A stretch of 64,000 bases of DNA from a virus: the IMG/VR virus record IMGVR_UViG_3300045988_119437, positions 72,768 to 136,767 of that record. One strand, written 5' to 3'. Position 1 is the first letter of the stretch; each line of letters begins with the position of its first letter. Positions 9,762 through 63,701 of this stretch are shown here, piece after piece. The position numbers were made by a program, and so were the translations under genes. A model generated the notes under the pieces. The model was given only the letters and a program-made list of their open reading frames with translations, was not told where the DNA came from and made no database searches.

Positions 9762-9986
9762 ATGATGGTATATGGAAACATAACGTGTAATCGCTGTGGC
9801 ATTACATGGTATGGCCCTAAATGTGGAAAGCTCTATTGTGATAAATGTCGTAAGATAATAAGAAATGAGGCATCCATTCGATGTAAGAACAAAAAGAAAC
9901 ATAAACCAACATTTGTTGAGATTGTAAGAATGGCAGATGCTGAAGGATTATCTTACGGTAAGTATTGTTTGAAGTATGGAGTTTGA
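9762..9986 (+). CDS. zinc-ribbon small protein
   Basis: CNRCG...CGKLYCDKC cysteine pairs. Confidence 0.45.
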   Translation: MMVYGNITCNRCGITWYGPKCGKLYCDKCRKIIRNEASIRCKNKKKHKPTFVEIVRMADAEGLSYGKYCLKYGV

Positions 9987-10845
9987 GGTGAATGTGATGA
10001 GTGCGCTTGAAAACGAAAAGAAAATCGAAAATACTGTTGCTCTTGATTTTTCTGACTACGATTCTTCTAACAAAGAAAAACGTCAGAACGTAGTTAAAAA
10101 GAATTATAGCCTAACTCGTATGGAAGCAAATCATGGGTCAGTTCAGCCAATTAAAGACAAAGAGGATATCAAACGTATTTCAGAATATTTTTGGATTAAA
10201 CGTCAGTACCGCAACTGGTGTTTGTTTAATGTAGGATGTTGCACAGGATTCAGAGCAAGTGATTTGCTTCGTTTGAAGGTTTCTGATGTAGCAGCTACAG
10301 ATATGAATGGAAAGGTTGTGGTGAATTTCAACGCAAAACTTCGTGTTAAGGAAAAGAAAACAAATAAGTATCGCATTCTTAAAGTTCCGGTCCCGGCACT
10401 AAAGTGTATTCAAACTTATATCAATATTGATGGATTGTCTTATGACGATTGGCTCTTCCCGTCTCGGCAAGGCAGTTGGAAGAACTCCATGAGAACAAAC
10501 GGTGGAACAAGCGTGAGTAAATCTGGTGTGTTCCGTAAGTATGATGCGAATCCAAAAGAAATGGGCGATCCGCTTGATGTAGATTCTTTTGGTAGAATCA
10601 TGCGTCAAGTTGGTAAGGAGTTAAATCTTTCTGTACAGCTTGGTTCTCATAGTTGCCGCAAAACTTTCGGATATCAGTTTATTGAATCTCATCCAAATGA
10701 CGTAAAAGCTCTTGCGTGGTTGCAGCATAGTCTGAATCACAGTAGTCAGGCAATTACGCTTCGCTATATTGGTCTGGATGAAGAAGTGGATGATGAATAC
10801 TACTCTGGGATTGATTATGGCGTGGACTGTCATGAAGACTCTTGA
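9976..10845 (+). CDS. tyrosine recombinase (phage integrase family), internal copy
   Basis: GFRASDLLRLK (Arg box), HSCRKTF (His-x-x-Arg box), LRYIG (catalytic Tyr) motifs. Confidence 0.7.
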   Translation: MEFEVNVMSALENEKKIENTVALDFSDYDSSNKEKRQNVVKKNYSLTRMEANHGSVQPIKDKEDIKRISEYFWIKRQYRNWCLFNVGCCTGFRASDLLRLKVSDVAATDMNGKVVVNFNAKLRVKEKKTNKYRILKVPVPALKCIQTYINIDGLSYDDWLFPSRQGSWKNSMRTNGGTSVSKSGVFRKYDANPKEMGDPLDVDSFGRIMRQVGKELNLSVQLGSHSCRKTFGYQFIESHPNDVKALAWLQHSLNHSSQAITLRYIGLDEEVDDEYYSGIDYGVDCHEDS

Positions 10846-17988: not shown

Positions 17989-18915
17989 ATGCTTACTGAA
18001 GAAAAGATCAACGCTTTTGCTGAAAAGTATTCTGATAGAAGCGGCGAGTTTGTTATATCGACACTTAACCATGTTATGGACTACGAAGCGGAGTGCGGGT
18101 ATGAGTTATTCGACTTCACAAAAGATGATTTTGTAAAGATGTTTGCCAAATACAATTGGGTAAACTCAAGTCGTTCATTCAGAAATGTGAAATCGATAAT
18201 CACTGGTTATATCAAGAACGAAAATCGTACAAGCATGTATGATTTGGCTGAATTCTCAGAGAGCGATGTGAGTTCAGACAATATGTACGAGGACAAGTAT
18301 TTTGCATCGGTTGATGAGTTTGTTGGTTTCTTAAACAAGTATGAAGAAGCGTATCAGATTCGTATGAATGTGATTGCTGTTTTGTACTGGATCGGTCTTA
18401 CTTCTAGTGAGGTTTCTAATCTAACAATTAACGATGTAGACTTTGAATCTCGTACTGTCCTCGATAGGACTGATGTTGACGCAAGGTTGATGGATATCAT
18501 CAAGCAGTGTTATGAAATGAAACAGTATGATGCGCCCAATATGGGAGGATACAGAACATTTTATGTCATAAATGGTGATTACATTCTTCGTAAAACAGAG
18601 GATAGAACTGGTGTAGACAGCGACCCGAAGATGTCTGTAAATACAATCCATAGTTATTTTGTGAGGCTGAATGACATTCTCGAAAAAAGACATCATACAA
18701 AGATTTTAGATCGAAGACATCTGACCAGAAATGGTGAGTATGTGAAGGTCTACGATTACTGTAAGAGTAATTCAGAGTTCAACCTTGCGGAGCTTAGTTT
18801 CGGAAATGGTAAAAAACCTCTTGCAGACATTATTGGAAGAAAGTGTAGCAAGGTAGCTTACATTAGTTTCCGGCAGGGATACAAGGGCTGGGTCGAATAC
18901 TTCCACAAAAATTAA
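17989..18915 (+). CDS. hypothetical protein (308 aa)
   Basis: ORF behind TATAAT box at 17967 and AAGGAG RBS; weak integrase-like segment LYWIGLTSSEV. Confidence 0.55.
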   Translation: MLTEEKINAFAEKYSDRSGEFVISTLNHVMDYEAECGYELFDFTKDDFVKMFAKYNWVNSSRSFRNVKSIITGYIKNENRTSMYDLAEFSESDVSSDNMYEDKYFASVDEFVGFLNKYEEAYQIRMNVIAVLYWIGLTSSEVSNLTINDVDFESRTVLDRTDVDARLMDIIKQCYEMKQYDAPNMGGYRTFYVINGDYILRKTEDRTGVDSDPKMSVNTIHSYFVRLNDILEKRHHTKILDRRHLTRNGEYVKVYDYCKSNSEFNLAELSFGNGKKPLADIIGRKCSKVAYISFRQGYKGWVEYFHKN

Positions 18916-19049: not shown

Positions 19050-20276
19050 ATGAGAACTTTGCTTCTTTTCCGTGGAGCACCAGGATGCGGGAAGTCCACC
19101 TATATTAAAGAGCATGATCTGGAAAAGTATACGCTTAGTGCCGATACGATTCGCCTTATGTGTCAGGGTGGTCAGGAAACCCCGGCTGGCACAATGGAAA
19201 TCTCTCCCCAGAACGATGATGTTGTCTGGGATATGCTCTTTAAACTGTTGGAGGTTCGGATGTCTCACGGTGAATTTACCGTGATTGATGCAACGAACTC
19301 TAAAACTGTTGAAATCAATCGCTATAAGAATCTTGCAAAGCAGTACAGATACAGAATGTACATCATCGACATGACTGATTTGCCGATTGATGAGTGTAAA
19401 CGGCGTAATGCGCTTCGTGCTCCTCTGAAGCGAGTTCCAGATGCTGCTATTGATAAGATGTATGCGCGATTTGCTACACAGAAGATTCCGTCTGGTGTGA
19501 CTGTACTTTCGTCAGATATAAATGTCCTTGAGAAATTGAACTATGTTCCGCAGGACTTTAGCAACTGGAACAAAATTCATATCATCGGTGATGTACATGG
19601 ATGTTACAGTTGCTTGAAAGAGTACCTTGGTGACCTGAAGGATGATGAACTGTACATTTTTGTTGGTGATTATCTGGATCGCGGTATTGAGAATGTAGAG
19701 ATGTTCAAGTTCCTTTGTGATGTTGTAGACAATAATCGGAAGAATGTAATTCTCCTTGAAGGAAATCACGAACGGTGGCTGAACAAGTGGGGCCATGATG
19801 AACCGGTTCAGAGCGAGGAGTTCGCAAACTACACTCGTCCGCAGCTTTTCAAAGCAGGGATTGACCATAATACGGCTCGTAAGGTTTATTCGAGAGTAGG
19901 ACAGTGCTCCTATTTTGATTACGACGAGAAAAGATACTTCGTTAGCCATGGTGGTTTGAGTTATTTGCCTGAATTTCTACCATTCGTGTCTACTGACCAG
20001 ATGGTAAAGGGTGTTGGTCGCTATCCTGATATGCTAACCGTGGCTGAGTCTTGGGAAAAATCGATGCCGGATAGCTACATTCAGATATTCGGTCATCGAA
20101 ATGTGCAGGATGTTCCTATTGATATGGGGCATCGGTGCTACAACCTCGAAGGAAAAATCGAGTTTGGTGGATATCTCCGTTGCGTGGAACTTGAACACGG
20201 TCAGTCAATCAAATGTGTAGAAACAAAGAATGATGTGTTCCGAAAAGAGGAGTCAAAGACTGAAACTACCGTTTAA
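19050..20276 (+). CDS. polynucleotide kinase-phosphatase (Pnkp-like: P-loop kinase + calcineurin-type phosphoesterase)
   Basis: N-terminal FRGAPGCGKST Walker A; C-terminal GDVHGC, GDYLDRG, GNHE metallophosphoesterase motifs. Confidence 0.7.
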   Translation: MRTLLLFRGAPGCGKSTYIKEHDLEKYTLSADTIRLMCQGGQETPAGTMEISPQNDDVVWDMLFKLLEVRMSHGEFTVIDATNSKTVEINRYKNLAKQYRYRMYIIDMTDLPIDECKRRNALRAPLKRVPDAAIDKMYARFATQKIPSGVTVLSSDINVLEKLNYVPQDFSNWNKIHIIGDVHGCYSCLKEYLGDLKDDELYIFVGDYLDRGIENVEMFKFLCDVVDNNRKNVILLEGNHERWLNKWGHDEPVQSEEFANYTRPQLFKAGIDHNTARKVYSRVGQCSYFDYDEKRYFVSHGGLSYLPEFLPFVSTDQMVKGVGRYPDMLTVAESWEKSMPDSYIQIFGHRNVQDVPIDMGHRCYNLEGKIEFGGYLRCVELEHGQSIKCVETKNDVFRKEESKTETTV

Positions 20277-21260
20277 ATGAAAACTGAGTTCGATAACGCA
20301 GAACTTGTCAGTAAGATGCGTCAAAGCAAATATGTGTTTGAGAAGCGATTCGGAGATATTTCTTCTTTCAACTTCTCTCGTGAAGCATTTTATAAGAAGC
20401 ACTGGGATGAGGTTTCTACCAAAGCAAGGGGATTGTTCATTAACACAAAGACGAATAAGATTGTAGCTCGAAGCTATGATAAGTTCTTTGCGGTCGATGA
20501 GCGGAATGAAACGAGAATTGGAAACCTACAGAACACTTTGAAGTTCCCGGTGACTGCATATCTGAAGGAAAACGGATTTCTTGGCATTGTCTCGTATGAT
20601 GCAGAACAGGATGGTCTGTTCATTGCAAGTAAATCCACTCCTGAAGGGCCTTTTGCAGATATGTTCCGAAAGATTCTCATGGATACGACTTCTGATGAAG
20701 ACCGTAAGAATCTGAAGGAAGTTGCAAAAGAGAATGGTTCCATCATTTTTGAGGTGATTGATCCTGTAAATGATGCTCATATCATCGAATACAAGAAACC
20801 GCACATTGTTTTGCTGGATATTGTTGCGAATGATATGAACTTCAGTGTGATGGATTACGATGATCTGAAGCGTGCTGCTGAAAAGTGTCATTTGCAGATT
20901 AAGGAGAAGGTTAAAATCTTTGAGAGCTGGAGTGAATTCTATCCTTGGTACGAGGGAGTCATGAACGAGAACTATCTGCATCATGGCTTTGAACATATTG
21001 AAGGGTTTGTCCTTCTGGATAGCACGAACTTTATGTTCAAGCTGAAGCTTCCTTACTACAAACACTGGAAGTTTTTGCGTAGTGTTATGCAGAGCGTTCA
21101 AAAGCGTGGCTATTATGAAAATACCGCAAAGTTGTTTACTGCTGAGGATAACCTGTTCTATGGTTGGATGCGTGAGCAACGAGAGAAAGACCAGGAATCT
21201 TTTTGCAAGAAGGGTATTATTCAGTTACGGAATGAATTCTATGAGAATCGGCACGAATAA
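20277..21260 (+). CDS. ligase-like nucleotidyltransferase (putative RNA ligase partner of Pnkp)
   Basis: Start abuts the Pnkp stop (TAAATG); candidate motifs I KENG, IV EGFVLLD, V FKLKL. Confidence 0.45.
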   Translation: MKTEFDNAELVSKMRQSKYVFEKRFGDISSFNFSREAFYKKHWDEVSTKARGLFINTKTNKIVARSYDKFFAVDERNETRIGNLQNTLKFPVTAYLKENGFLGIVSYDAEQDGLFIASKSTPEGPFADMFRKILMDTTSDEDRKNLKEVAKENGSIIFEVIDPVNDAHIIEYKKPHIVLLDIVANDMNFSVMDYDDLKRAAEKCHLQIKEKVKIFESWSEFYPWYEGVMNENYLHHGFEHIEGFVLLDSTNFMFKLKLPYYKHWKFLRSVMQSVQKRGYYENTAKLFTAEDNLFYGWMREQREKDQESFCKKGIIQLRNEFYENRHE

Positions 21261-21329
21261 CTAAGATATTTTCTTCCTCCGAAAATGCCCTGCGCGGGGC
21301 TGACAGCCGGGAAAGACCGGCAATTATAT

Positions 21330-21419
21330 GCCCAAGTGATGGAATGAGGTAGACATGAAGCTCCCAAACAGCTTTGCGTGAGATATCGCGTGCGGTTTCG
21401 AATACCGCCTTGGGCACCA
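21330..21419 (+). tRNA. tRNA-Leu(CAA), type II, CCA encoded
   Basis: Acceptor GCCCAAG/CTTGGGC, anticodon stem AAGCT/AGCTT, loop CCCAAAC, variable arm, T arm GCGGT-TTCGAAT-ACCGC; C33 unusual. Confidence 0.65.
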
Positions 21420-21459
21420 GAGTCCGAATATTCACCTATTAAATACTGGAGGCAAGTTC

Positions 21460-22356
21460 ATGAAAAGAATTGAAAAATTTTCAAAAGAAGAGATCGAGCA
21501 GATTTTTAAAGAGAGCAACAACTGGGCTACTGTGGCTGAGAAACTTGGTTACAGCAAATTCGGAGGAAGCTCTAGGGATGTAATCCAAACATATGCAGAC
21601 GAAAATAATATTGACACTTCTCATTTTACGGGACAAGGTTAGAATAAAGGTAATATTGATTTGACAAGATTTAAACAGGGCGTTCCATTCAAAGGGTTAA
21701 GAGAATCGCTCTTACTCATAAGAGAACATAAATGTGAATGCTGTGGAAACAAGGAATAGATGGGAAAGGAAATTTCGTTAGAAGTTCATCATATTGATGG
21801 AGATAGGCTGAATAATGAGTTATCAAATCTCAAGCTACTGTGTCCTAATTGTCATTCACAAACAGAAAATTATTGCGGGAGAAATATTAAGAGACATAGA
21901 GCTGTATCCGATGAAGAGTTTGTAAAGGCGCTTAAAACATCGAAGTCTATTGGTGAGGCGTTAGGAAAAGTGGGAATAAATTACATAGCTAAAAGCTGGT
22001 ATGAAAAAGCACGAGAACTTATGCTTGAAAATGAAATCAAGTTCCCGAAGAAAGAAACAATACAAAAAGGAAAGAACGAACGCAAAAAGCGCGAGACAAA
22101 ATCTTGCGCAAAATGTGGGAAAGAATTGAGTCCAAGAACAAAAGGGACACTATGCAAAGAATGTCTTTATAGTCTTCCATACAGAAGATCTAAAGGGTTG
22201 CCAGAAAGAAGTCAGCTTGAAAAAGATATCCGTGTTATGTCATTTTCTAAAGTTGGAGAAAAGTATGGTGTAACAGGAACTTCTATTCGTAAGTGGTGTA
22301 AATACTATGGACTGCCTTATAGAAGATCCGATATAAACAATACTAGCAAAGAATAA
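21460..22356 (+). CDS. HNH homing endonuclease with NUMOD-like repeats, interrupted by two in-frame TAG codons (21640, 21757)
   Basis: Single frame reads ...HFTGQG-TAG-NKGN...HKCECCGNKE-TAG-MGKEISLEVHHIDGD...NLKLLCPNCHS; HNH motif spans the second TAG. Confidence 0.6.
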
Positions 22357-22398
22357 TTTCAAAAGAATGAAGCTGTATTTTATACAGCTTCTGTATAT

Positions 22399-22486
22399 GC
22401 CGCAGTGATGGAGTGACATACATTTCCCGCTTAAACCGGGACGCCTGAAACACGGATCGTGGGTTTGAATCCCACCTGCGGCACCA
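22399..22486 (+). tRNA. tRNA-Leu(TAA), type II, CCA encoded
   Basis: Acceptor GCCGCAG/CTGCGGC, anticodon stem TCCCG/CGGGA, loop CTTAAAC, T arm GTGGG-TTTGAAT-CCCAC. Confidence 0.65.
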
Positions 22487-22489
22487 TAT

Positions 22490-22563
22490 CCAGAATGTAG
22501 TGTAATGGCAGCACGCTGCGTTTGGGACGCAGAAGAGCGATTCGAATTCGACATTTTGGACCA
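22490..22563 (+). tRNA. tRNA-Pro(TGG)-like; weak T stem, possible pseudo-tRNA
   Basis: Acceptor CCAGAAT/ATTTTGG, anticodon stem CTGCG/CGCAG, loop TTTGGGA, T loop TTCGAAT; only 3 bp of T stem pair. Confidence 0.3.
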
Positions 22564-22564
22564 G

Positions 22565-22585
22565 TGGAGTATTCCACTTGCTTTT
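22565..22585 (+). terminator. possible terminator hairpin
   Basis: GTGGA-GTAT-TCCAC followed by TTGCTTTT. Confidence 0.35.
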
Positions 22586-22659
22586 CATGAATACCTTCCT
22601 ATTATTCTTGGCTCTCCAAAAAAAACGGAGCAGTAGGACGCAGCAAGCCAAGTTACATA

Positions 22660-22749
22660 ATGAGGGTTCGCCAAGTGGTAAATGGCATCTGGCTTTGACC
22701 CAGACAGCGTGCTTTATAGCCGATCGTCGGTTCGATCCCGACACCCTCA
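22660..22749 (+). tRNA. tRNA-Gln(TTG)-like with an enlarged 21-nt variable region
   Basis: U1-A72 acceptor TGAGGGT/ACCCTCA, D arm TCGCCAAGTGGTAAATGGCA, anticodon loop CTTTGAC, T arm GTCGG-TTCGATC-CCGAC. Confidence 0.4.
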
Positions 22750-22754
22750 ATTTA

Positions 22755-22844
22755 TGGACACGTGATGGAATCGCAGACATGAAAGATTTAGGCTCTTTTG
22801 CCGTTAACAACGGTGTGCCCGTTCAAATCGGGTCGTGTCCACCA
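22755..22844 (+). tRNA. tRNA-Leu(TAG), type II, CCA encoded
   Basis: Acceptor GGACACG/CGTGTCC, anticodon stem AAAGA/TCTTT, loop TTTAGGC, variable hairpin CCGTT-AAC-AACGG, T arm CCCG-TTCAAAT-CGGG. Confidence 0.65.
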
Positions 22845-22947
22845 TTATCAACTTATGGTTGCGTACCGTTTGTTGATCTCCTTTGACCACTATTATTCCC
22901 AGCTCGCCAGTGATGGTGCAGTAGTGTTTTGTAAGCTGGGTTTTCAT

Positions 22948-23022
22948 GCGGCGGTCGTACAACGGCTAGTACATCAGCCTTCCAAGCTGAGGATGAGGTT
23001 TCGACTACCTTTCGCTGCTCCA
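22948..23022 (+). tRNA. tRNA-Gly(TCC), CCA encoded
   Basis: Acceptor GCGGCGG/TCGCTGC (two G-U pairs), D stem GTAC/GTAC, anticodon stem TCAGC/GCTGA, loop CTTCCAA, T arm GAGGT-TTCGACT-ACCTT. Confidence 0.65.
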
Positions 23023-23174
23023 ATCTCGTATGGGTAGGATCTTTGGCGGTCAGATCTGGCCGCGCCTGTGCGAGATACCACCCCGAAAGGGGCGAGATAT
23101 AGGAAATGTGCATCGCTGTTATTCCTTCCTCGTCTATATGATATAGATGCAATAGTGTTTTATAAGGAAGGTGC

Positions 23175-23210
23175 CCAGTTGAATAGTTGCAGCTATTTAA
23201 CTGGTTTTTA
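23175..23210 (+). terminator. rho-independent terminator-like hairpin ahead of tRNA-Met
   Basis: CCAGTT...AACTGG stem followed by TTTTTA. Confidence 0.45.
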
Positions 23211-23211
23211 T

Positions 23212-23292
23212 GGGACATTATCTCAATTGGTTAGAGAACTCAGCTCATAACTGAGCATATGTATCACGGTTCAAGTCCGACATGTCCCACCA
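23212..23292 (+). tRNA. tRNA-Met/Ile2(CAT)-like, CCA encoded
   Basis: Acceptor GGGACAT/ATGTCCC, D stem TCTC/GAGA, anticodon stem CTCAG/CTGAG, loop CTCATAA; T stem only 3 bp. Confidence 0.5.
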
Positions 23293-46265: not shown

Positions 46266-46982
46266 ATGACTGTTGATTTGATTGCGTACACACAGCGAGT
46301 TGTTCCTACAAATGATAAGAATCCTTTAGATATTGTAGAGGAAGCTGCGAGTATTTGTTATGATTCTTCAATGACTGACGATTATAAGATTGCTAAGGGA
46401 TGTAAGGCCAGCGGTCATTATTCTGTGCTTGAACACATCAACTTTACGTTCTATGTCAAAGATGTGAGTCGCGCACTTCTGGCACAGATTAGTCGTCATC
46501 GACATATTAGCATGAGCTGCCGCAGCCAGCGTTATTGCAGCGAGGATGGATTCAAGTATGTAAATCCGTTTACCGGTGAAGATGCTGATGTTTTCGATAA
46601 TATGATGTCGGACATTGATACCGATTATCAGATTCTCAAGAAGTATCATAATGCCAAAAACGAAGACGCTCGTGCAGTTCTGCCAAATGCTTGCTGTACA
46701 GAATTCTACATCACGATGAACGCTCGTGCTTTGATTGAGATGAGTCATCTTCGACTTTGTTCTAGGGCTCAAAAAGAAATCCGCGAGATGTTCACAGAAA
46801 TGAAGAAGGAAGTTGCACAGGTTTGTCCTGAAGTAGCAAACTGGATGGTTCCTTCCTGTGAGGCTAATCCGAAGTATCCGTTCTGTCCAGAAGGTCGTGG
46901 CTGCTGTGGCCGTCATCCTCGGTTGGCAGATGTTTATAAGCCTATTGAAAAAAACAAGGAGGTTATTGATGCAAACACTTGA
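46266..46982 (+). CDS. thyX: flavin-dependent thymidylate synthase ThyX
   Basis: ThyX signature ISRHRHISMSCRSQRY (RHRxxS...R). Confidence 0.75.
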   Translation: MTVDLIAYTQRVVPTNDKNPLDIVEEAASICYDSSMTDDYKIAKGCKASGHYSVLEHINFTFYVKDVSRALLAQISRHRHISMSCRSQRYCSEDGFKYVNPFTGEDADVFDNMMSDIDTDYQILKKYHNAKNEDARAVLPNACCTEFYITMNARALIEMSHLRLCSRAQKEIREMFTEMKKEVAQVCPEVANWMVPSCEANPKYPFCPEGRGCCGRHPRLADVYKPIEKNKEVIDANT

Positions 46983-47409
46983 CGAAATCAAGAAGAACGT
47001 CGAGCACCCGTCTTATTACGGCGGTGCAGACAATCCCTATGAGGCAATCAAAGTGCTACGGGAGTGGCAGTTAGACAAGGATGCTTATCTTTGGAATGTT
47101 GGTAAGTATCTGAGCCGGGCAGGTCACAAAGATGGCAATTCTCAGCTTCAAGATTTGACGAAGGCACGTTGGTATTTGGACTATAAAATCCGGCTTTTAG
47201 AGGAACAGCAGAAGGTTGCTGAAAGTGTCGTAGATACGCTCAAGAAAGTCCCTAACGAGGTAACTGATAAGCTGACTACGATGTCGGATTACATTCCTCG
47301 TCATGCAAAGCCCGACTATACGGATGATTTGGTTTTCTGTCCAGAAATCCATGCTCCAAACATCGAAACTGCCGTGGTCCCTGATTGTGCCGATGAGGTC
47401 AAGTTTTAA
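46970..47409 (+). CDS. DUF3310-like phage protein
   Basis: HPSYYGG...EAIKVL...WNVGKYLSRAGHK pattern; ATG after AAGGAGG. Confidence 0.45.
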
Positions 47410-47534
47410 GAGGTTTACATAAATGAGAATGAGATACAACTGGGAAGAACCATTTGCGGCATTTGCCCTGTTTGTTACAATGTTGATTTTTGGCTTTGCC
47501 AAATTTGTTTTAAGATAATCAAGGAGAAAAATAC

Positions 47535-49058
47535 ATGAATATGATGTTTATTGCAATTCCTGTCGTTGTTGTCTTTCTGATCGCCTTTGCATTTACTTGC
47601 TATAAGAAGGCTCCTCCTACTCAGGCAATCGTCGTAACAGGTTTTGGACTGTCTAAGCCGAAAGTTATCTGTGGTCGTGGCGTGTTCGTCCTTCCGGTTA
47701 TTCAGCGAGCTGACCGTCTGAATATGCGATTGCTCAAGATTGATGTCAAGACTCCTGAAACCGGTGTAAAGACTAAAGAGGGTGTTTCTCTGTGGCTGGA
47801 CTCTGTTGTTACTGTTCAGGTTTACTCTGAGAACTCTACTGTAACTGATGATGAGATTAAGAGTGCCGGTTGTGAGGATGCAAAGACTTATATTAGTGCT
47901 CGTCAGCAGGCTGCTATTTCCAACTTCCTTGGCATGAGTGAAGATGGCATTAACGAAAAGATCAACGATGTCCTTCAGGGCAATCTGCGAGAGATTGTTT
48001 CTGAGATGACTGTCAATGATATCCTGACCAATCGTAAACAGATGGCAATTTCCGTTGTTGAGAATGCTCGTCCTGATTTAGCAAAGATGGGTCTGGAAGT
48101 TGTTACTTTCAATGTTCAGGATATTAAGGATGCTATTGATGCTCAGGGTCATAATCATGGTGTCATTGAGGCAATTGGTGTTCAGCAGGAAGAGCTGGTG
48201 AAGAAACAGGCAGAGATTGCTAAGGCCGAAGCCGCTCGTGATATTGCTCGTGCTAAGGCGGATACTGCTCGTGAATCAAATGAAAAGGAAATTGAATCCA
48301 AGACCGCTATTGCACAGCGCAACAATGAGTATCTTCTGACTCAGGCCGCTCTGAAGGCGGAGGCTGATAAGGCAAATGCTGATGCAGAAGCTGCTGGTGA
48401 GATTCAAATGAATCTGCGTGATAAGGAAATTAAGGAAGCTGAAGCTGACGCAGCTATTGCAAAGCAGAAGAAGATGGTTGAGTTGGCCGCTCAGGAAGCA
48501 GAAGTTCGTCAGCAAAAGCTGGATGCGGAGATTCGCAAGCAGGCAGACGCCGACCTGTATAAGCGTCAGAAGGAAGCTGAAGCAAAGAAGTACGAAGCAG
48601 AGCGTTCTGCAGAATCCGCAAAGTTCGCTAAGGAACAGGAGGCAGAAGGCATCCGTATGGTTGGCATGGCGGAAGCTGAGGCCATCAGGCAGAAGGGTCT
48701 TGCTGAAGCAGAAGCTATGCTGAAGAAGGCCGAAGCTTACAAGCAGTACAATGGTGCGGCTATGGGTGAAATGATCATTAAGATTCTTCCTAGCATTGCA
48801 GCTGAGGTTGCAAAGCCGCTGGCGTCCATTGACAAGGTTTCCATCATTGGCAGTAACGCAAATGGTGTTTCTGAGATTTCCGGCAATGTCCCAGCAGTCA
48901 TGGCTCAGACTTTTGAGGCCGTTCGTGAAGCAACTGGCATTGATATGAAGGAAATTGTCCGTGCCAACAGTTACGATGCAAAGGTCACTAAGAATGTGAA
49001 CCTTGTAAGCGATTCGACGATTGTTTCTGAAAAGAACGATGCGCAGGATGCTGAGTAA
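47535..49058 (+). CDS. flotillin-like SPFH/band-7 protein
   Basis: N-terminal TM segment, SPFH domain, long EA-rich coiled coil (EAEAEAIRQKGLAEAEAM). Confidence 0.65.
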   Translation: MNMMFIAIPVVVVFLIAFAFTCYKKAPPTQAIVVTGFGLSKPKVICGRGVFVLPVIQRADRLNMRLLKIDVKTPETGVKTKEGVSLWLDSVVTVQVYSENSTVTDDEIKSAGCEDAKTYISARQQAAISNFLGMSEDGINEKINDVLQGNLREIVSEMTVNDILTNRKQMAISVVENARPDLAKMGLEVVTFNVQDIKDAIDAQGHNHGVIEAIGVQQEELVKKQAEIAKAEAARDIARAKADTARESNEKEIESKTAIAQRNNEYLLTQAALKAEADKANADAEAAGEIQMNLRDKEIKEAEADAAIAKQKKMVELAAQEAEVRQQKLDAEIRKQADADLYKRQKEAEAKKYEAERSAESAKFAKEQEAEGIRMVGMAEAEAIRQKGLAEAEAMLKKAEAYKQYNGAAMGEMIIKILPSIAAEVAKPLASIDKVSIIGSNANGVSEISGNVPAVMAQTFEAVREATGIDMKEIVRANSYDAKVTKNVNLVSDSTIVSEKNDAQDAE

Positions 49059-49069
49059 GAGGTGATTAC

Positions 49070-51271
49070 ATGGAATATGTGATTAAACGCGATGGAACGG
49101 AAGTCCCTTTTGATAAAAGTAAGATTGTGAATGCAGTCGAGAAGGCGATGACCTGTACACCGGGTAGTATCGACGCTCGTGTGTCGAATGCGATTGCTGA
49201 CTATATCGCAGACATGCCGGGCATTCTTTCTGTTGAGCAGATTCAGGATATCGTAGTGGACAGTCTAGCAAATAGCCCGTTTATTGACGTTGCAAATGCA
49301 TATAGTCAGTGGCGGCAGTATCGTCAGGAAATTCGAGATAAAGAGAAAACCAACGCAAGTATTCTTGAAATTCTTGATGCCCAGAACGACGCAATCAATC
49401 AGGAAAACAGTAATAAGAACGCAACCATCAATAGCACGCAACGTGATTACATGGCCGGAGAGGTATCTAAGGAACTAACTGACAGACTTCTACTTCCAAA
49501 GGATATCCGAGATGCACACAAAAGTGGTTTAATTCATGTGCATGATAAAGATTATTTTGTGATGCACTGCCATAATTGCGATCTGGTCAATCTTGAAGAT
49601 ATGCTCCAGAACGGCACCGTCATCTCCGGCACCTATATTGAAAAACCTCACAGCTTTTCCACCGCCTGCAACATTGCCACCCAGATCATTGCACAGGTAG
49701 CTTCGATGCAATTTGGAGGTCAGAGTATTACACTTTCACATCTGGCTCCATTCGTAGATGTTTCCCGCAAGAAGATCACAAGTGAAGTACACCAAGAATT
49801 TTACGAGATGGTTCAGAATAATGAAATCGATAAGATGCCGGAGTCTGAAACTATCAATCGAATTGTAGAAGATCGTTTACATAAAGAAATTGCTCGTGGC
49901 GTGCAGACCATCCAGTATCAGGTTGTCACTTTGATGACGACAAACGGCCAGGCCCCTTTTATCACCGTGTTTATGTACCTCGATGAAGTTCCAGAAGGTC
50001 AAACTCGTGATGATTTGGCTCTAATTGTTGAAGAAGTGTTAAAACAGCGCATTCAGGGTGTAAAGAATGAAGTTGGTGTATGGGTCACTCCGGCCTTCCC
50101 AAAGCTCATTTATGCTCTTGATGAGGATAACATTCATTCTGATTCTAAGTATTATTACCTGACTGAGCTGGCAGCTAAGTGTACTGCCAAGCGAATGGTT
50201 CCTGATTATATTTCCGCAAAGGTTATGAAGGAGCTTAAAGGCGGTGTGTGGCCTAGCATGGGCTGTAGATCCTTCCTTACTCCTGACCGCACCACTGAGA
50301 ACGTAGCTAGTGCCAAGAATTGGGTTAAGGGGCATAAGTATTATGGCCGCTTCAATCAGGGCGTCGTGACCATCAATCTGGTGGACGTGGCTTGCAGTTC
50401 AGAAGGGGACAAGGATAAATTCTGGAAAATCTTCGATGAACGACTCGAATTGTGTCATCGAGCTCTACAGATTCGTCACAAGCGTCTACTCGGCACTTCT
50501 TCTGATATGGCCCCTATCCTGTGGCAGTACGGTGCATTAGCTCGTCTAAAGAAGGGCGAGAAGATCGACAAGTTGCTCTTCGGCGGCTACTCCACCATCA
50601 GCCTGGGTTATGCCGGTCTGTATGAGTGTGTGAAGTATATGACCGGCAAGAGCCACACCGATCCTGATGCTAAACCTTTTGCTCTCGAAATTATGCGGCA
50701 CATGAATGATAAGTGTAACGAGTGGAAGGCCGCTGAAAACATCGATTACTCTCTGTATGGTACTCCTTTGGAGTCCACTACATATGAATTTGCACGTTGC
50801 TTGCAGAAGCGGTTTGGTATGATTCCAGATATTACTGACCATGACTACGTAACAAATTCTTATCATGTCGTTGTCCGTGAACATATCGATGCTTTCACTA
50901 AGCTAAAGTTTGAGAGCGAGTTCCAGAAGCTTTCTCCAGGAGGGGCGATTAGCTATATCGAGGTGCCAAATCTGCAGCAGAACATTCCTGCGGTGCTTAG
51001 TGTTATGCAGTTCATTTACGACAACATCATGTATGCGGAGCTGAACACCAAGTCCGACTACTGCCAGTGCTGCGGCTACGACGGCGAAATTAAAATTGTA
51101 GAAGATGAGAAAAACCACAAGCTTATATGGGAGTGCCCGAATTGTGGTAATCGTGACCAGAACAAAATGAATGTCGTAAGACGTACTTGTGGTTACCTGG
51201 GAACCAATTTTTGGAATCAGGGGCGCACTCAGGAAATTCGAGATCGAGTGGTTCATTTGAGCGACAATTAA
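49070..51271 (+). CDS. nrdD: anaerobic ribonucleoside-triphosphate reductase NrdD (class III)
   Basis: N-terminal ATP-cone, C-terminal zinc ribbon CQCCGY...CPNCGN and glycyl-radical motif RTCGYLG. Confidence 0.85.
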   Translation: MEYVIKRDGTEVPFDKSKIVNAVEKAMTCTPGSIDARVSNAIADYIADMPGILSVEQIQDIVVDSLANSPFIDVANAYSQWRQYRQEIRDKEKTNASILEILDAQNDAINQENSNKNATINSTQRDYMAGEVSKELTDRLLLPKDIRDAHKSGLIHVHDKDYFVMHCHNCDLVNLEDMLQNGTVISGTYIEKPHSFSTACNIATQIIAQVASMQFGGQSITLSHLAPFVDVSRKKITSEVHQEFYEMVQNNEIDKMPESETINRIVEDRLHKEIARGVQTIQYQVVTLMTTNGQAPFITVFMYLDEVPEGQTRDDLALIVEEVLKQRIQGVKNEVGVWVTPAFPKLIYALDEDNIHSDSKYYYLTELAAKCTAKRMVPDYISAKVMKELKGGVWPSMGCRSFLTPDRTTENVASAKNWVKGHKYYGRFNQGVVTINLVDVACSSEGDKDKFWKIFDERLELCHRALQIRHKRLLGTSSDMAPILWQYGALARLKKGEKIDKLLFGGYSTISLGYAGLYECVKYMTGKSHTDPDAKPFALEIMRHMNDKCNEWKAAENIDYSLYGTPLESTTYEFARCLQKRFGMIPDITDHDYVTNSYHVVVREHIDAFTKLKFESEFQKLSPGGAISYIEVPNLQQNIPAVLSVMQFIYDNIMYAELNTKSDYCQCCGYDGEIKIVEDEKNHKLIWECPNCGNRDQNKMNVVRRTCGYLGTNFWNQGRTQEIRDRVVHLSDN

Positions 51272-55015: not shown

Positions 55016-56028
55016 TTGAAAGGATGTGATTTTATAGACTCAAAAGATGTGTTAAAAACCGAATCTGAGCCAGTAGGTTATATTTATATTACAGAAAATT
55101 TAGTTGATGGAAGAAAATACATAGGCCAACATCATTCAAAAGAATTCGATCCATATTATAAAGGATCTGGAAAAATATTAAAACAGGCATTTGATAAATA
55201 TGGATTTAGTAACTTTAAAACGACGATTTTGGAATGGTGCTACTCGGATGAGGAACTAAACGAAAAAGAACGTTATTGGATAAAAGAAAACAATGCAGTA
55301 GAAGATAGATTATTTTACAATATTTTGCCGGGTGGTCTTGGTGTTCAGATGTTTGGGCCAGACAATCATATGTATGGAAAGCACCATACAGAAGAAGCAA
55401 AAGAAAAAATGTCAGATGCTTTGAAGGGGAAAATGGCAGGAGAGAATAATCCAATGTATGGAGTCCATCTTACATACACTCAAGAACAAAAAGATAAAAT
55501 GAGCGAACGAAACAAACGAATGGGGAGATGGGTAGGAGAAGATAATCCTTGGTATGGAAAACCATCACCATTTAAAGGGAAAAAACGTAGTGAAGAGTGG
55601 TGTAAGAAATCTTCTGAAGCTCACAAAGGAATTCACCCTAATATTTCAGAAGAAACAAGAGCTCGTTTAAGTAAAATGCGAAGCGAATGGATGTCTGGAG
55701 AGAAAAACCATTGGTATGGGAAAAGAGGGGCAGAACTTCCATGGTATGGGGAAAAAAGACACCGGAAGAGATAGAAAAGCTAAGACAAGCAAGTTTAGGA
55801 AAGAGAAAAGGAAAAGATAACCCCGCATCTAAGCCTATCTATTCAATGGACGGAAGGTATTTGTTTTGGACAATACAAGAGGTGGCTGACTTTTTAGGAA
55901 AGACATACGGGCAAGCAAGACATGCAATCGACCATGAAAAACAAGTTGACTGTAACGGAGAACAAATAATTTTCACAAGAGACAAATCTAAAGTAAAGGA
56001 GAAGAATTTTCAGGATGAACTACGCTAA
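55016..56028 (+). CDS. GIY-YIG homing endonuclease with NUMOD3 repeats; frameshifted at A6 run (55752-55757)
   Basis: GYIYITENLVDGRKYIGQH...YKGSG GIY-YIG motif; repeated NxxYG(K/V)xH(T/S)EE modules; the -1 frame continues the repeats and the C-terminal DNA-binding region. Confidence 0.7.
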
Positions 56029-56560
56029 AATCGTTCCATGTGATATAGCAAATGGGCCGTCGGTGCGCGTCACACTTTTCGTGCAGGGTTGTGATCATCA
56101 TTGTCCCGGCTGTCAGAATCCTACTACATGGGACCCGAATGGTGGTCAGCCATTCACAGATGAAACGCTTGATAAAATTGTAGATTTACTTCGACCTGAT
56201 TACATTCAGGGACTGACTCTCACTGGTGGAGATCCACTCTTGCCGGAGAATAGAACTACAATCTTTCGTATCTGCAAATGTGTTTACAAAGAGTTTGGGC
56301 GAAAAAAAGATATCTGGTTATGGACGGGGTACACATATGAAGAACTGCGACAAGAATGGATGGAATCATGGGATAGCGTCATTCTTGTCAACATTTTTTC
56401 ATACACAACAGTTCTTGTTGATGGTCCTTTTATTGAGGCGAAAAAAGATATTTCTCTTCCATATATGGGAAGCTCAAATCAGAGGGTGATTGATATTTGG
56501 AGGAGCGCAGGAAAAGATAATCCAGTCCTTTGGTGGACTCCAGAAGAGAAAGGAAAATAA
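56015..56560 (+). CDS. nrdG: anaerobic RNR activating protein NrdG (radical SAM)
   Basis: CDIANGPSVRVTLFVQGCDHHCPGCQN Cys cluster; ATGA overlap. Confidence 0.8.
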   Translation: MNYAKIVPCDIANGPSVRVTLFVQGCDHHCPGCQNPTTWDPNGGQPFTDETLDKIVDLLRPDYIQGLTLTGGDPLLPENRTTIFRICKCVYKEFGRKKDIWLWTGYTYEELRQEWMESWDSVILVNIFSYTTVLVDGPFIEAKKDISLPYMGSSNQRVIDIWRSAGKDNPVLWWTPEEKGK

Positions 56561-56561
56561 T

Positions 56562-57095
56562 ATGGATTTAGGAAACACAACTACTAATCTTGGCTATGGC
56601 ATGAGTCGGATGCCGTATCGCCCCAACATTAAAATCAATAAACTGCACGAAGATGCTCATCTGCCGACTTATGGCTCAAAAAACGCTGCTTGTGCAGACC
56701 TGTATGCTTATATCGGGTTTGATGATGCAACGATGGTAAACAAGAATGGTGACCGCTGCATCATGATTCAGCCGGGTGAAACCGTTAAGGTTCATACTGG
56801 TCTGCGAATGGCTCCGCCGGAAGGTTGGTATGTCGCTATCTATGCTCGCAGCGGTATGGCAACTAAGCTTGGACTTGCTCCTGCGAACAAAATTGGCGTG
56901 TGCGATCAAGATTACCGTGGAGAGTATATCGTTGCGCTACATAACCACTCCAATATCCCGCAGATGATTACTCATGGTGATCGCATTGCTCAGATGGCAG
57001 TTGTTCCATTTTGGCAGGCTGATTTTAAAGAAGTTTCCGAATTGGACGAAACTGAGCGCGGAGCCGGTGGTTTTGGAAGTACCGGAAAACAGTAA
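56562..57095 (+). CDS. dut: dUTP diphosphatase
   Basis: dUTPase motifs SKNAACADL, ARSGMA, RGAGGFGSTG; ATG after AAAGGAAAATAAT. Confidence 0.8.
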   Translation: MDLGNTTTNLGYGMSRMPYRPNIKINKLHEDAHLPTYGSKNAACADLYAYIGFDDATMVNKNGDRCIMIQPGETVKVHTGLRMAPPEGWYVAIYARSGMATKLGLAPANKIGVCDQDYRGEYIVALHNHSNIPQMITHGDRIAQMAVVPFWQADFKEVSELDETERGAGGFGSTGKQ

Positions 57096-61443: not shown

Positions 61444-62262
61444 ATGATTATTGACTGCAAATCTATCGCACAGGATATCAAAAATAAAATCAAGAATGTC
61501 ATCGCAGAAGATGACTATGCTCCTATTTTACATATTTATCAAGTAGGGGACAACCCTGCATCCAATGCTTATATTCGCGGCAAGCTGCGTGACTGTGAAG
61601 AGGTTGGAATCGGAGTGGAGCTTGTCAAACTGCCAGAAAATATTACCGAAGATGAATTGAACAACAAGATCTTAGAAGATTATAATTGGGAATATGTGGA
61701 CGGTATCATTGTTCAGCTTCCGTTGCCAAAACATATCGACCCTAAAAATATTTGTATTCCAGATGAACTTGACGTTGATGGCTTTAATTCTACATCTAAA
61801 TTTCAGCCCTGCACTCCGCTGGGCGTTATGAAGATTTTTGACTCCATCGGTTACGATCTGGATGGCAAGAATGTACTCGTATGCGGTCAATCTGATATTG
61901 TTGGTCGTCCGCTGGTTGATATGCTGATTAAACGGCACTGTAATGTGATCTCTGTGAATAGCACGGGTTCCCGCATGAAGGCCACTACTCTTGGATTTGA
62001 AATGGTCGATGTGGTCATCTCTGCTGTGGGCAAGCGCAACTTTATCACACCGTTTGGTCTTGATCGGGTTGAAGTCTGCATCGATGTTGGCATCAACTAT
62101 GACGAGAACGGAAAGCAACACGGCGACTGTGCCGATGATATTTATGAGATGGAAGATATCAAAGTAACCCCTCGTATCGGCGGAGTTGGCCTTATGACAC
62201 GTGCTATGCTACTTTACAATGTATGTGTGGCAAGGTATGGAGAAGAGAAGATGGAGAGGTGA
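61444..62262 (+). CDS. folD: bifunctional methylenetetrahydrofolate dehydrogenase/cyclohydrolase FolD
   Basis: YQVGDNPASNAYIRGKLRDCEEVGI, DVDGF and PCTPLGV signature segments. Confidence 0.8.
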   Translation: MIIDCKSIAQDIKNKIKNVIAEDDYAPILHIYQVGDNPASNAYIRGKLRDCEEVGIGVELVKLPENITEDELNNKILEDYNWEYVDGIIVQLPLPKHIDPKNICIPDELDVDGFNSTSKFQPCTPLGVMKIFDSIGYDLDGKNVLVCGQSDIVGRPLVDMLIKRHCNVISVNSTGSRMKATTLGFEMVDVVISAVGKRNFITPFGLDRVEVCIDVGINYDENGKQHGDCADDIYEMEDIKVTPRIGGVGLMTRAMLLYNVCVARYGEEKMER

Positions 62263-62534: not shown

Positions 62535-63701
62535 ATGATAAGACGTAAAGATAATAATGGCAAAGTTTTAAAAGACGGCGAGAGCCAGAGAAAGGATGGG
62601 AGATACCAATATAGATGGACAAACAAACTTGGAAAACGCTCAATAATATACGCCACTTCACTTAAAGAATTGAGAGAAAAAGAAGCTGAAATCCAAGAAA
62701 AACTTAATTTGGGTATAACGTCTACTTCAAAAATCACAGTGTACCAATTAGCAAAAAGACATCTCGAAGAAACAAAACTTACTATTAGGCCAAGCAGCTA
62801 TAAAACAAAATCGCAGAATTTGAAAATCTTTCAGAATCACCTAATTGGGGAAATGAATGCAACTGATATTTTAGTGCGCGATGTAAAACAATTTGCACGA
62901 GAATTGGATAACGAAGGATATTGTTATACAACAATCAGAGATGTCATGTCTTTAGCTAGACCGGCATTTCAAGAAATGTTTGATGAGAATATAATTCCTA
63001 GAAATCCATTCGTTTTTAAATTAAATACAGTTGTCAAATGTGACTCAAAAGAAAAAGAAATATTAACAGAAGAGCAGTATCAAAATCTGATCAAGTTCAT
63101 GAAATCTAGTCGAGTATATAAAAGGCATGTTGGCATGGTGATGCTTTTGCACGAGACCGGACTTCGAGCAGGAGAATTATGCGGGCTAACAAAAAAGTCA
63201 TTTGATTTTGATAACAACACTGTTACTATATCTCATCAGATGGTGTACGATGGAAAGAGCGGCGGGCTGTATTTAGCACCTACAAAAACAGAAAGTGGGA
63301 TAAGGACTATCCCATTATCTAAAGACGCCATCATTGCTTTTGAAGAAGCGATAAAACAACGTCCGATTGTAAAAGCAGAGAGAATAATAGATGGGCAAGC
63401 CGACTTCTTGTTCATAGCAAAAACTGGAAGGCCCTATACGAATAAAAACCTTGTTAGAATTTTTGAAGGACTAATCAAAGCCTATAATAGTTGCCATGAT
63501 GAACCATTGCCTGAAGTCACTGCCCATAGTATGCGCCACGAATATTGTACACGGCTTGTCAAAGCCAAGATGGATGTTAAATCGGTTCAATACCTCATGG
63601 GACATTCGTCGCCCGATATAACCTTGAAAGTGTATACTCATATCTTAAAAGAAGAGACCGAAGCAGAGGCAATCAAACAGTTTAATAGGATTGTTTCCTA
63701 A
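62535..63701 (+). CDS. int: tyrosine integrase (Tn916/phage Int family) with N-terminal arm-binding domain
   Basis: N-terminal RKDGRYQYRWT; catalytic LRAGELCGL, HSMRHEY, LKVYTH. Confidence 0.8.
   Translation: MIRRKDNNGKVLKDGESQRKDGRYQYRWTNKLGKRSIIYATSLKELREKEAEIQEKLNLGITSTSKITVYQLAKRHLEETKLTIRPSSYKTKSQNLKIFQNHLIGEMNATDILVRDVKQFARELDNEGYCYTTIRDVMSLARPAFQEMFDENIIPRNPFVFKLNTVVKCDSKEKEILTEEQYQNLIKFMKSSRVYKRHVGMVMLLHETGLRAGELCGLTKKSFDFDNNTVTISHQMVYDGKSGGLYLAPTKTESGIRTIPLSKDAIIAFEEAIKQRPIVKAERIIDGQADFLFIAKTGRPYTNKNLVRIFEGLIKAYNSCHDEPLPEVTAHSMRHEYCTRLVKAKMDVKSVQYLMGHSSPDITLKVYTHILKEETEAEAIKQFNRIVS

Follow-up and report, generated by a model that had tools for sequence, protein, structure and literature searches.

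A phage-borne flotillin in a swappable membrane-protein slot upstream of nrdD

We analyzed a 64,000-nucleotide stretch of viral DNA, referred to as the window (positions 72,768 to 136,767 of IMG/VR record IMGVR_UViG_3300045988_119437), and within it an open reading frame (ORF) at 47535-49058 that lies directly upstream of nrdD. The product of this ORF is almost certainly a flotillin, a member of the SPFH superfamily, and we are equally confident that the gene is borne by a phage. Comparison with related viral loci makes it very probable that the gene is an optional cassette at a recombination hotspot, and its substitution pattern points to purifying selection of the same strength as for NrdD, the reductase encoded next to it. 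The main interest of this known protein family in an under-explored setting lies in the repeated uptake of flotillins by phages and in enzyme-grade constraint inside a swappable membrane-protein slot, not in the adjacency to nrdD.

An earlier reading of the window from its letters alone, the original prediction, had proposed a 507-aa flotillin-like protein with an N-terminal transmembrane (TM) segment, an SPFH/band-7 domain and a long Glu/Ala-rich coiled coil, encoded immediately upstream of nrdD. Its coordinates hold exactly: the ORF starts with ATG on the + strand, encodes 507 aa and is followed 11 nt downstream by nrdD. Profile searches likewise bore out the SPFH/band-7 core, as both Pfam domains exceed their curated cut-offs (PF01145, 70.3 bits against a gathering cut-off of 23.6; PF15975, 34 bits against 27), and by these profile comparisons the Band_7, Flot and NrdD scores lie far above chance level. 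The rest of the proposed architecture was also recovered. A hydropathy scan of the 507-aa protein detected one hydrophobic segment, at aa 1-26, and the anchor is followed by a conserved CYKKAPP motif in which K25, A26, P27 and P28 are invariant in alignment A1. Residues 210-430 are rich in Ala (24%), Glu (16%) and Lys (12%), and this long-helix region, collinear in alignment with the coiled coil of flotillin-1, appears to be the cage-wall coiled coil. Positions 489-506 in the C-terminal tail vary among phage copies, and the tail is densest in phage-specific substitutions. The recognized hallmarks of flotillins are a membrane tether, a PHB domain, an EA-rich coiled coil/flotillin domain and megadalton (MDa) oligomers (PMC4312047); the phage protein has the first three of these.

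Comparison with solved structures led to the same family. A phmmer search against all PDB chains returned flotillin-1 and flotillin-2 as the only matches, with human flotillin-1, solved as a cage by cryo-electron microscopy, aligned over aa 27-489 (E 5e-49). For structure prediction, a first AlphaFold2 (AF2) model built only from homologs at least 70% identical reached a predicted local distance difference test (pLDDT) score of 52.8 and was discarded; a second, built from a 68-sequence alignment spanning 34-97% identity, reached 66.5 and was interpreted at the domain level only. In the second model, pLDDT was 70-85 across the anchor, the SPFH domain and the first long helix, and the chain was predicted to form a TM helix (aa 2-22), an alpha/beta SPFH domain (aa 23-199, fold pLDDT 65-84), the two very long helices listed in Table 1 and then short C-terminal helices. 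Foldseek against PDB placed the flotillin-1/2 cage (9bq2, 9l3g) at the top (E 3e-23 to 4e-18, 28-30% identity over approximately 450 aligned columns), whereas stomatin, HflK/C, prohibitin, erlin and QmcA scored approximately 1e-11 or weaker (best other subfamily 3.6e-11). By sequence and by model, its nearest SPFH relatives are the flotillins rather than stomatin, prohibitin, HflK/C or erlin. The flotillin-1/2 cage is its best match among solved structures in both sequence and fold, which implies that the same SPFH, wall-helix and roof architecture would be present in the phage protein. The phage protein differs in having an N-terminal hydrophobic helix where the eukaryotic proteins have a lipid-modified hairpin, in an extra loop relative to flotillin-1 (approximately aa 100-128) and, presumably, in being homo-oligomeric.

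The FloT/YuaG type assigned by the original prediction holds for domain architecture and fails at the equivalog level. The NCBIfam FloT model NF058507 aligned over 6-477 (470 of 477 positions) and scored 256 bits against an equivalog cut-off of 700; FloT equivalog status was rejected on this score, and the protein is a homolog from another flotillin lineage, of the gut Clostridia type. Relative to FloT/YuaG of Bacillus subtilis, it has equal domain order and similar length, and it differs in having no adjacent NfeD (yuaF-like) gene, in being encoded by a phage and in forming an optional cassette.

The window is clearly part of a large phage genome of approximately 125-141 kb. Its genes include a PolIII-alpha-like polymerase, an exoV/Dda-type helicase, an ATP-dependent ligase, RecJ, a DnaB-like helicase and a primase, together with a polynucleotide kinase/RNA ligase pair, methyltransferases, a homing endonuclease, FolD and seven tRNAs. 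Most window ORFs (81 of 105) lie on the + strand, and GC skew is positive throughout. The gene order PolIII-helicase-ligase-ThyX-DUF3310-flotillin-NrdD is repeated on an independent 20-kb contig (L001) with a flotillin 87% identical, and again on 14 IMG/VR contigs of 70-141 kb with flotillins 94-100% identical. With this gene content and shared synteny, the claim that flotillin is here a phage gene stood, and the block is not host chromosome.

To place the gene among its relatives, we used NrdD as an anchor to collect 80 related viral loci, 77 of them informative, and typed the slot between the DUF3310 gene and nrdD. A LemA-family gene together with a gene for a protein here called X, without flotillin, fills the slot in 36 of 77 loci (47%). 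A micro-ORF followed by flotillin, the arrangement of the window, was found in 10 (13%), and the micro-ORF alone, directly before nrdD, in 12 (16%). Two loci have DUF3310 and no slot content detected by tblastn, one of which (L073), when read by eye, has a diverged micro-ORF; another 17 are more distant phages without any of these slot genes. LemA, X and flotillin also occur together in one genome, in the order DUF3310-LemA-X-flotillin-NrdD (L013). Each slot state was seen with NrdD alleles of all three classes (98%, 89% and 80%), and this independence of slot state from NrdD allele implies recombination. The borders are constant: DUF3310 stands upstream of the slot in 60 related loci, and the last slot gene of the relatives ends approximately 12-15 nt before the nrdD ATG whichever cassette is present, close to the 11-nt gap of the window. 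Slot junctions have TAAG(G/A) microhomology at the stop codon and ribosome-binding site (RBS) in common. Flotillin failed as a core gene, being present in 10 of the 77 informative NrdD-anchored loci, and its place next to nrdD is explained by the slot being a recombination hotspot rather than by a pathway link. Thus, the gene does sit in the nucleotide-metabolism block, as had been claimed, and the metabolic link does not survive, since most relatives have LemA and X or nothing in the same place; adjacency to nrdD is no guide to function.

Variation was also seen on either side of the slot. ThyX, encoded two genes upstream, occurs as two alleles 33-35% identical (238 versus 263 aa) at the same position in near-identical phages (L030-L109), and contigs with a 100%-identical flotillin bear the other ThyX allele, making this a second allelic-replacement site beside the slot. 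NrdD of some relatives (L013 11536-14610; L095-L105) has 1024 aa against 733 aa, with an insertion of approximately 290 aa after about residue 168 that is intein- or homing-endonuclease-like and is not in the window copy.

The micro-ORF sits in the 125-bp region upstream of flotillin, with 16 nt between the two. A hydropathy scan found a hydrophobic segment at aa 10-31, by which its product appears to be a single-pass membrane peptide. The frame is intact in 14 of 16 other flotillin-bearing loci, and a second allele (MRYNWEYPLVALMLLAMIMTFWFSKVVLGI, 30 aa, 50-55% identical) stands alone before nrdD in 12 flotillin-less relatives. The micro-ORF and the LemA gene of L013 have their RBS and first codons (MRYNW) in common: window positions 47410-47443 match the start of that LemA gene, and the two loci are again similar in DNA from the flotillin RBS onward. 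Constraint on the micro-ORF is weak to moderate, with a ratio of nonsynonymous to synonymous substitution rates (dN/dS, or omega) of 0.18 when it stands alone and a ratio of nonsynonymous to synonymous polymorphism (pN/pS) of 0.47 beside flotillin. Despite a weak selection signal, the micro-ORF probably encodes a genuine micro-protein that arose from the LemA anchor. A mere deletion scar was rejected as the sole account, given two diverged alleles and a frame of 29-31 codons intact in dozens of genomes.

The LemA-family protein of L013 was identified by Pfam (E 1e-33), and X is a 268-aa protein with a hydrophobic helix at either end that matched no Pfam family; the label 'Transmembrane protein 43' carried by X homologs was rejected, having no Pfam support even at E up to 5. 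Both are known phage families (phrog_1383, phrog_3886), and their genes lie side by side in Herelleviridae phages of Enterococcus (EFDG1, for example), where nrdD is again a few genes away. Outside phages, a LemA-X-Y-flotillin cluster lies on a relaxase-bearing element in the metagenome-assembled genome (MAG) GCA_027682645.1 (L003/L004). LemA, X and flotillin follow the same order there as in the phage locus L013, at 53%, 41% and 75% identity, respectively, and the element differs in an extra 120-aa gene for a two-TM protein, Y, and in its non-phage background. Compared with this element, the window is missing LemA and X, and only the micro-ORF sharing the LemA start is left. As a separate observation, gp156 of EFDG1 (L110, NC_029009.1, 3432-4714), annotated as 'virion structural protein', belongs to the LemA family (Pfam E 1.2e-21) and is paired with the X homolog gp157 in a nucleotide-metabolism block; its public annotation is probably misleading.

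We then explored the origin and age of the phage flotillin. More than 115 metagenomic protein clusters are 73-79% identical to it, and the flotillin of a Subdoligranulum variabile MAG is 79% identical. Homologs were found on one ordinary chromosome (GC 58%) that encodes glycoside hydrolases and transporters, and in mobile-element-like settings, namely a relaxase-bearing region with LemA and two membrane proteins upstream of flotillin, a ParM-like/AAA region and an IMS/DUF87 region. The phage flotillins form one clade (100/100 bootstraps) that is approximately 75-76% identical to each neighboring group, chromosomal or element-borne. Because the phage copies are monophyletic and equidistant from these groups, a single old capture is highly likely; in a bootstrap test of the donor lineage, chromosomal, L003-type and L024/L026-type copies were not separable as sister to the phage clade. 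The source appears to be the flotillin radiation of gut Clostridia chromosomes (Subdoligranulum-type) and large mobile elements, and the search of sequenced plasmids found no close relative of the flotillin (best 37%). As to Subdoligranulum as a host genus, the GC gap of 15-18 points between phage and chromosomal relatives would argue for caution.

Codon usage gave no sign of a recent arrival. The original prediction had raised a host-like codon signature of recent capture as a possibility, and the check was not borne out: the GC content at third codon positions (GC3) of the flotillin gene is 0.435, against 0.73-0.80 for chromosomal and 0.53-0.60 for element-borne homologs, and it ranks 17 of 48 among window genes (z = +0.53). 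Its codon fractions correlate at r = 0.81 with those of other phage genes and at 0.14-0.57 with those of homologs (GC3 0.53-0.80). By these measures, the capture appears old enough for codon usage to have become fully phage-like. Selection since then appears strong. Among 11 phage flotillin copies, mean dN/dS was 0.04 at dS of up to 0.8, with no indels or frameshifts, compared with 0.043 for NrdD, 0.09 for LemA and 0.14 for X, which points to purifying selection on flotillin as strong as on NrdD. Substitutions fixed only in the phage clade number just 1-3 per 100 residues in the SPFH core; a surface loop (aa 101-130), the Flot region and the C-terminal tail are where they concentrate.

Flotillins at 76-78% identity were also noted on contigs of 70-390 kb flagged as viral in IMG/VR (L024/L025, L026, L122-L142). 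The L024/L026-type contigs carry ParM-like partition, MoxR-like AAA, Y-family polymerase (IMS) and DUF87-like genes and almost no recognizable phage genes; such contigs may represent megaplasmids, phage-plasmids or elements wrongly flagged as viral.

Amongst sequenced phages, flotillins are rare, as the original prediction had supposed in calling the gene unexpected. A tblastn search of 50,697 phage records gave 10 matching records, mostly short fragments, and only two of the ten are large (121-151 kb). One is csAssE-Sib (OR575929), a 151-kb complete genome that labels the gene 'flotillin family protein'; its neighbors there are replication genes (primase, DnaB, exonuclease, helicase), and a small two-TM protein precedes it. 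The other is MT835492, a 121-kb scaffold. PHROGs holds no flotillin family and gave a weak match only, to phrog_200, an SPFH 'lipoprotein' found in T4-like phages and others. This too is a phage-encoded SPFH membrane protein, and it aligns with the SPFH part only (E 6.7e-8, aa 2-265) and is without the long coiled coil and Flot domain. The surprise is softened by metagenomic data, where an alignment-based scan of IMG/VR found at least 79 flotillin-bearing loci in three groups: the window's phage family (15 loci), large contigs with 76-78% identical copies related to the L026-type element (approximately 20), and contigs with 32-46% copies (approximately 40). The MT835492 type is 85-98% conserved on contigs of 110-190 kb; its nearest cellular relatives are from Bacteroidales (65-68%), which argues for a separate capture. 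The csAssE-Sib and MT835492-like flotillins are full-length Band_7 plus Flot proteins of 517-566 aa, from gut phages of 121-190 kb, and differ from the window protein in sequence (27-34% identical), cellular relatives and neighbors, as independent captures. On these sequence comparisons, at least three independent large gut-phage lineages appear to have taken up flotillins: the window family, the MT835492 type and csAssE-Sib. Such captures suggest a general membrane-related need of big gut phages. Our literature search found no published functional study of a phage-encoded flotillin; a paper on phage Perkons was rejected as such a report, concerning instead integration into the host floA gene. 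The role of SPFH genes in phages and the reason for their presence there have been described as unclear (PMC13239085, PMC13384950).

The function of bacterial flotillins themselves is debated, with fluidity control, scaffolding and protease regulation under discussion. For the phage protein, the explanation that we favor overall is a functional flotillin serving in auxiliary membrane maintenance, and we place it, by its weakest step, somewhat short of an even chance. The protein would be translated from its own strong RBS, an AAGGAG kept in all relatives compared, and would probably be co-transcribed with the flanking co-directional genes, as the tight spacing and the 11-nt gap to nrdD suggest. 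Its N-terminal segment would anchor it at the inner face of the host cytoplasmic membrane, and the SPFH domain and long Ala/Glu helices would drive self-assembly into a large cage fencing off a membrane patch. Solved flotillin structures are, by their PDB titles, closed cages above a membrane patch, and cellular flotillins are tethered to the inner leaflet and oligomerize into MDa assemblies (PMC4312047). Because the phage protein keeps every flotillin module, the same assembly is expected on the host membrane, and by this analogy it probably does form cages there. The cage would then continue its ancestral cellular job, the upkeep of membrane organization, fluidity and membrane-bound machineries during host reprogramming, and could co-assemble with host flotillin. 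We prefer an ancestral to a derived job because the SPFH core is near-cellular and dN/dS very low. The benefit of such an auxiliary gene would vary with the host strain or the conditions, and this would account for its coming and going. This membrane-maintenance payoff is the tentative part of the explanation, and we would not put it at even chances.

Several observations weigh against this explanation. A promoter and terminator consensus scan, for the signals expected of an autonomous accessory unit (a moron), did not exceed shuffled sequence in number of sites, and expression timing can be judged by gene order only; one weak hairpin and T-run, at 47489-47503, fall inside the micro-ORF. NfeD is the canonical partner in bacterial SPFH operons; none was found by Pfam among window neighbors or in the upstream genes of L003, L024, L026, L028 and L029, and a PDB sequence search with the TM protein upstream of the csAssE-Sib flotillin gave no NfeD match. 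The chromosomal relatives of the phage flotillin are likewise stand-alone genes. The AF2 monomer model is of moderate confidence (pLDDT 66.5), and with chromosomal relatives at 55-58% GC and the phage at 40%, a host flotillin similar enough for co-assembly is hypothetical. Only approximately 13-17% of family members carry flotillin, so it is not needed for the basic infection cycle, and a patchy distribution at a hotspot is seen more typically in conflict genes than in auxiliaries of a housekeeping-like kind.

This last point bears on the reading that we rank a close second, though by itself still rather unlikely, in which the flotillin cage, or LemA with X, is a weapon in phage-phage or phage-host warfare, acting in superinfection exclusion or enclosing and so neutralizing a membrane protein of the host (for example an abortive-infection effector that disrupts membranes, a receptor or a channel). 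Interference with host membrane defense had been among the roles offered by the original prediction. Presence/absence and allelic replacement are typical of accessory conflict genes, and both are seen at the slot among near-identical phages, independently of the NrdD allele. All alternative slot occupants are membrane proteins (LemA, the two-TM X and the micro-ORF), other mobile elements, bearing a relaxase, a ParM-like protein or DUF87, carry relatives of this flotillin, independent captures of flotillins were made by at least three lineages of large gut phages, and SPFH cages are seen to enclose clients in the HflK/C-FtsH structures 7wi3 and 9cz2. However, PADLOC-DB v2 defense models gave no match for flotillin, LemA, X, Y or other phage flotillins, a protein in a direct arms race would not usually show an omega as low as 0.04 and so nearly invariant an SPFH core, and no candidate client is encoded beside flotillin. 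A more specific proposal, which we regard as speculative and unlikely, is that the slot is a dedicated 'membrane-toolkit' locus at which large Firmicute phages swap interchangeable modules for membrane remodeling (LemA with X, flotillin or the LemA-derived micro-protein), and that flotillin cages capture a specific host or competitor component, for example a membrane-acting abortive-infection effector, the entry channel of a rival phage or FtsH. If true, this would be an unrecognized SPFH-cage strategy of viral takeover or exclusion, reached independently by several large gut-phage lineages.

The original prediction had also suggested that flotillin organizes a membrane microdomain, taken here as a platform on which phage DNA is replicated, nucleotide-metabolism complexes gather or virions are assembled. 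The location of the gene fits, as flotillin is set among replication and nucleotide-metabolism genes with nrdD 11 nt downstream in the same orientation, the independent csAssE-Sib flotillin also lies amid replication genes, and the LemA-X pair of EFDG1 is likewise near nrdD. We nevertheless consider it improbable, because approximately 85% of close relatives replicate without flotillin, their slot holding unrelated membrane proteins or nothing; a required platform is thereby excluded and the adjacency to nrdD is explained by the hotspot. In addition, no replication protein of the window had a recognizable membrane-targeting partner in a search that was not exhaustive.

Slightly less probable again is an HflK/C-like regulator, in which the flotillin would bind and modulate host FtsH and so shift the stability of a phage or host regulator, for instance one of lysis and lysogeny. 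FtsH associates with flotillins in B. subtilis and with HflK/C in E. coli, and HflK/C is linked to lambda lysogeny through the stability of CII. HflK/HflC-FtsH is also an SPFH cage on the bacterial inner membrane, cages enclosing FtsH are among the fold matches of the phage protein (7wi3, 9cz2), and three integrase-like window proteins make a temperate or switchable lifestyle possible. Against this, the phage protein clearly falls in the flotillin subfamily (fold E 1e-23, versus approximately 1e-10 to 1e-7 for HflK/C), the HflK/HflC proteins differ in being periplasmic, heterodimeric and chromosomal, and the surroundings of the flotillin gene revealed neither a repressor nor a CII-like module. 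Lastly, a non-functional passenger, or host DNA mis-assembled into a viral contig, might be suspected from the absence of flotillin in most relatives and from several short GenBank 'phage' records with flotillin matches that look like fragments of uncertain origin, and is effectively refuted by identical synteny in at least 14 independent contigs from several samples, phage-like codon usage, an omega of 0.04 at dS of up to 0.8 with no frameshifts in 11 copies, and 100/100 bootstraps for monophyly of the phage clade.

Whichever role applies, a phage flotillin that is strongly selected yet optional amounts to a natural gain and loss experiment. Near-isogenic phages with flotillin, with LemA and X, with both or with neither could reveal what advantage a cage gives in the infected cell.

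Table 1. Features of the flotillin locus, in window coordinates.
Feature	Position	Strand	Evidence or remark
ThyX gene, upstream of DUF3310 gene	46266..46982		
DUF3310 protein gene, left border of variable slot	46969..47409	+	Pfam E 3.7e-10
Micro-ORF, 31 aa, MRMRYNWEEPFAAFALFVTMLIFGFAKFVLR	47423..47518	+	own GAGG RBS
AAGGAG RBS of flotillin gene	47521..47526	+	read from sequence, 8 nt before ATG
Flotillin gene, 507 aa	47535..49058	+	Pfam Band_7 and Flot, FloT model, PDB and Foldseek matches
N-terminal hydrophobic membrane anchor, aa 1-26	47535..47612	+	Kyte-Doolittle score 2.78
SPFH / Band_7 domain, aa 25-233	47607..48233	+	Pfam PF01145 E 2.7e-19
Two very long Ala/Glu/Lys-rich helices, aa 210-328 and 342-430	48162..48824	+	AF2, composition
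Flotillin C-terminal domain PF15975, aa 374-452	48654..48890	+	Pfam E 3.4e-8
Variable, low-confidence C-terminal tail, aa 478-507	48966..49055	+	pLDDT <50
nrdD, anaerobic ribonucleotide reductase	49070..51271	+	Pfam NRDD E 3.9e-192, ATP-cone, Gly_radical

Beyond the slot, a Pfam search limited to the nine ORFs downstream of nrdD found no NrdG, the radical-SAM activase. A dUTPase/dCTP-deaminase-like protein is encoded at 56490-57095, a homing endonuclease (phrog_314) at 55016-55774 and a FolD-like methylenetetrahydrofolate dehydrogenase/cyclohydrolase (phrog_7320) at 61444-62262; a folate-cycle auxiliary gene of the last kind would suit ThyX. Apart from three tyrosine-recombinase/integrase-like genes (9976-10845, 17989-18915 and 62535-63701), the window resembles a large virulent-type replication module. 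The polynucleotide kinase/phosphatase and RNA ligase pair (19050-21260) adjoins the seven tRNA genes in the interval 19050-23292, whose tRNA set comprises three Leu, Pro, Gln, Gly and Met, the predicted tRNA-Gln being unusually long at 90 nt. This arrangement suggests a tRNA-repair or replacement module against anticodon nucleases.

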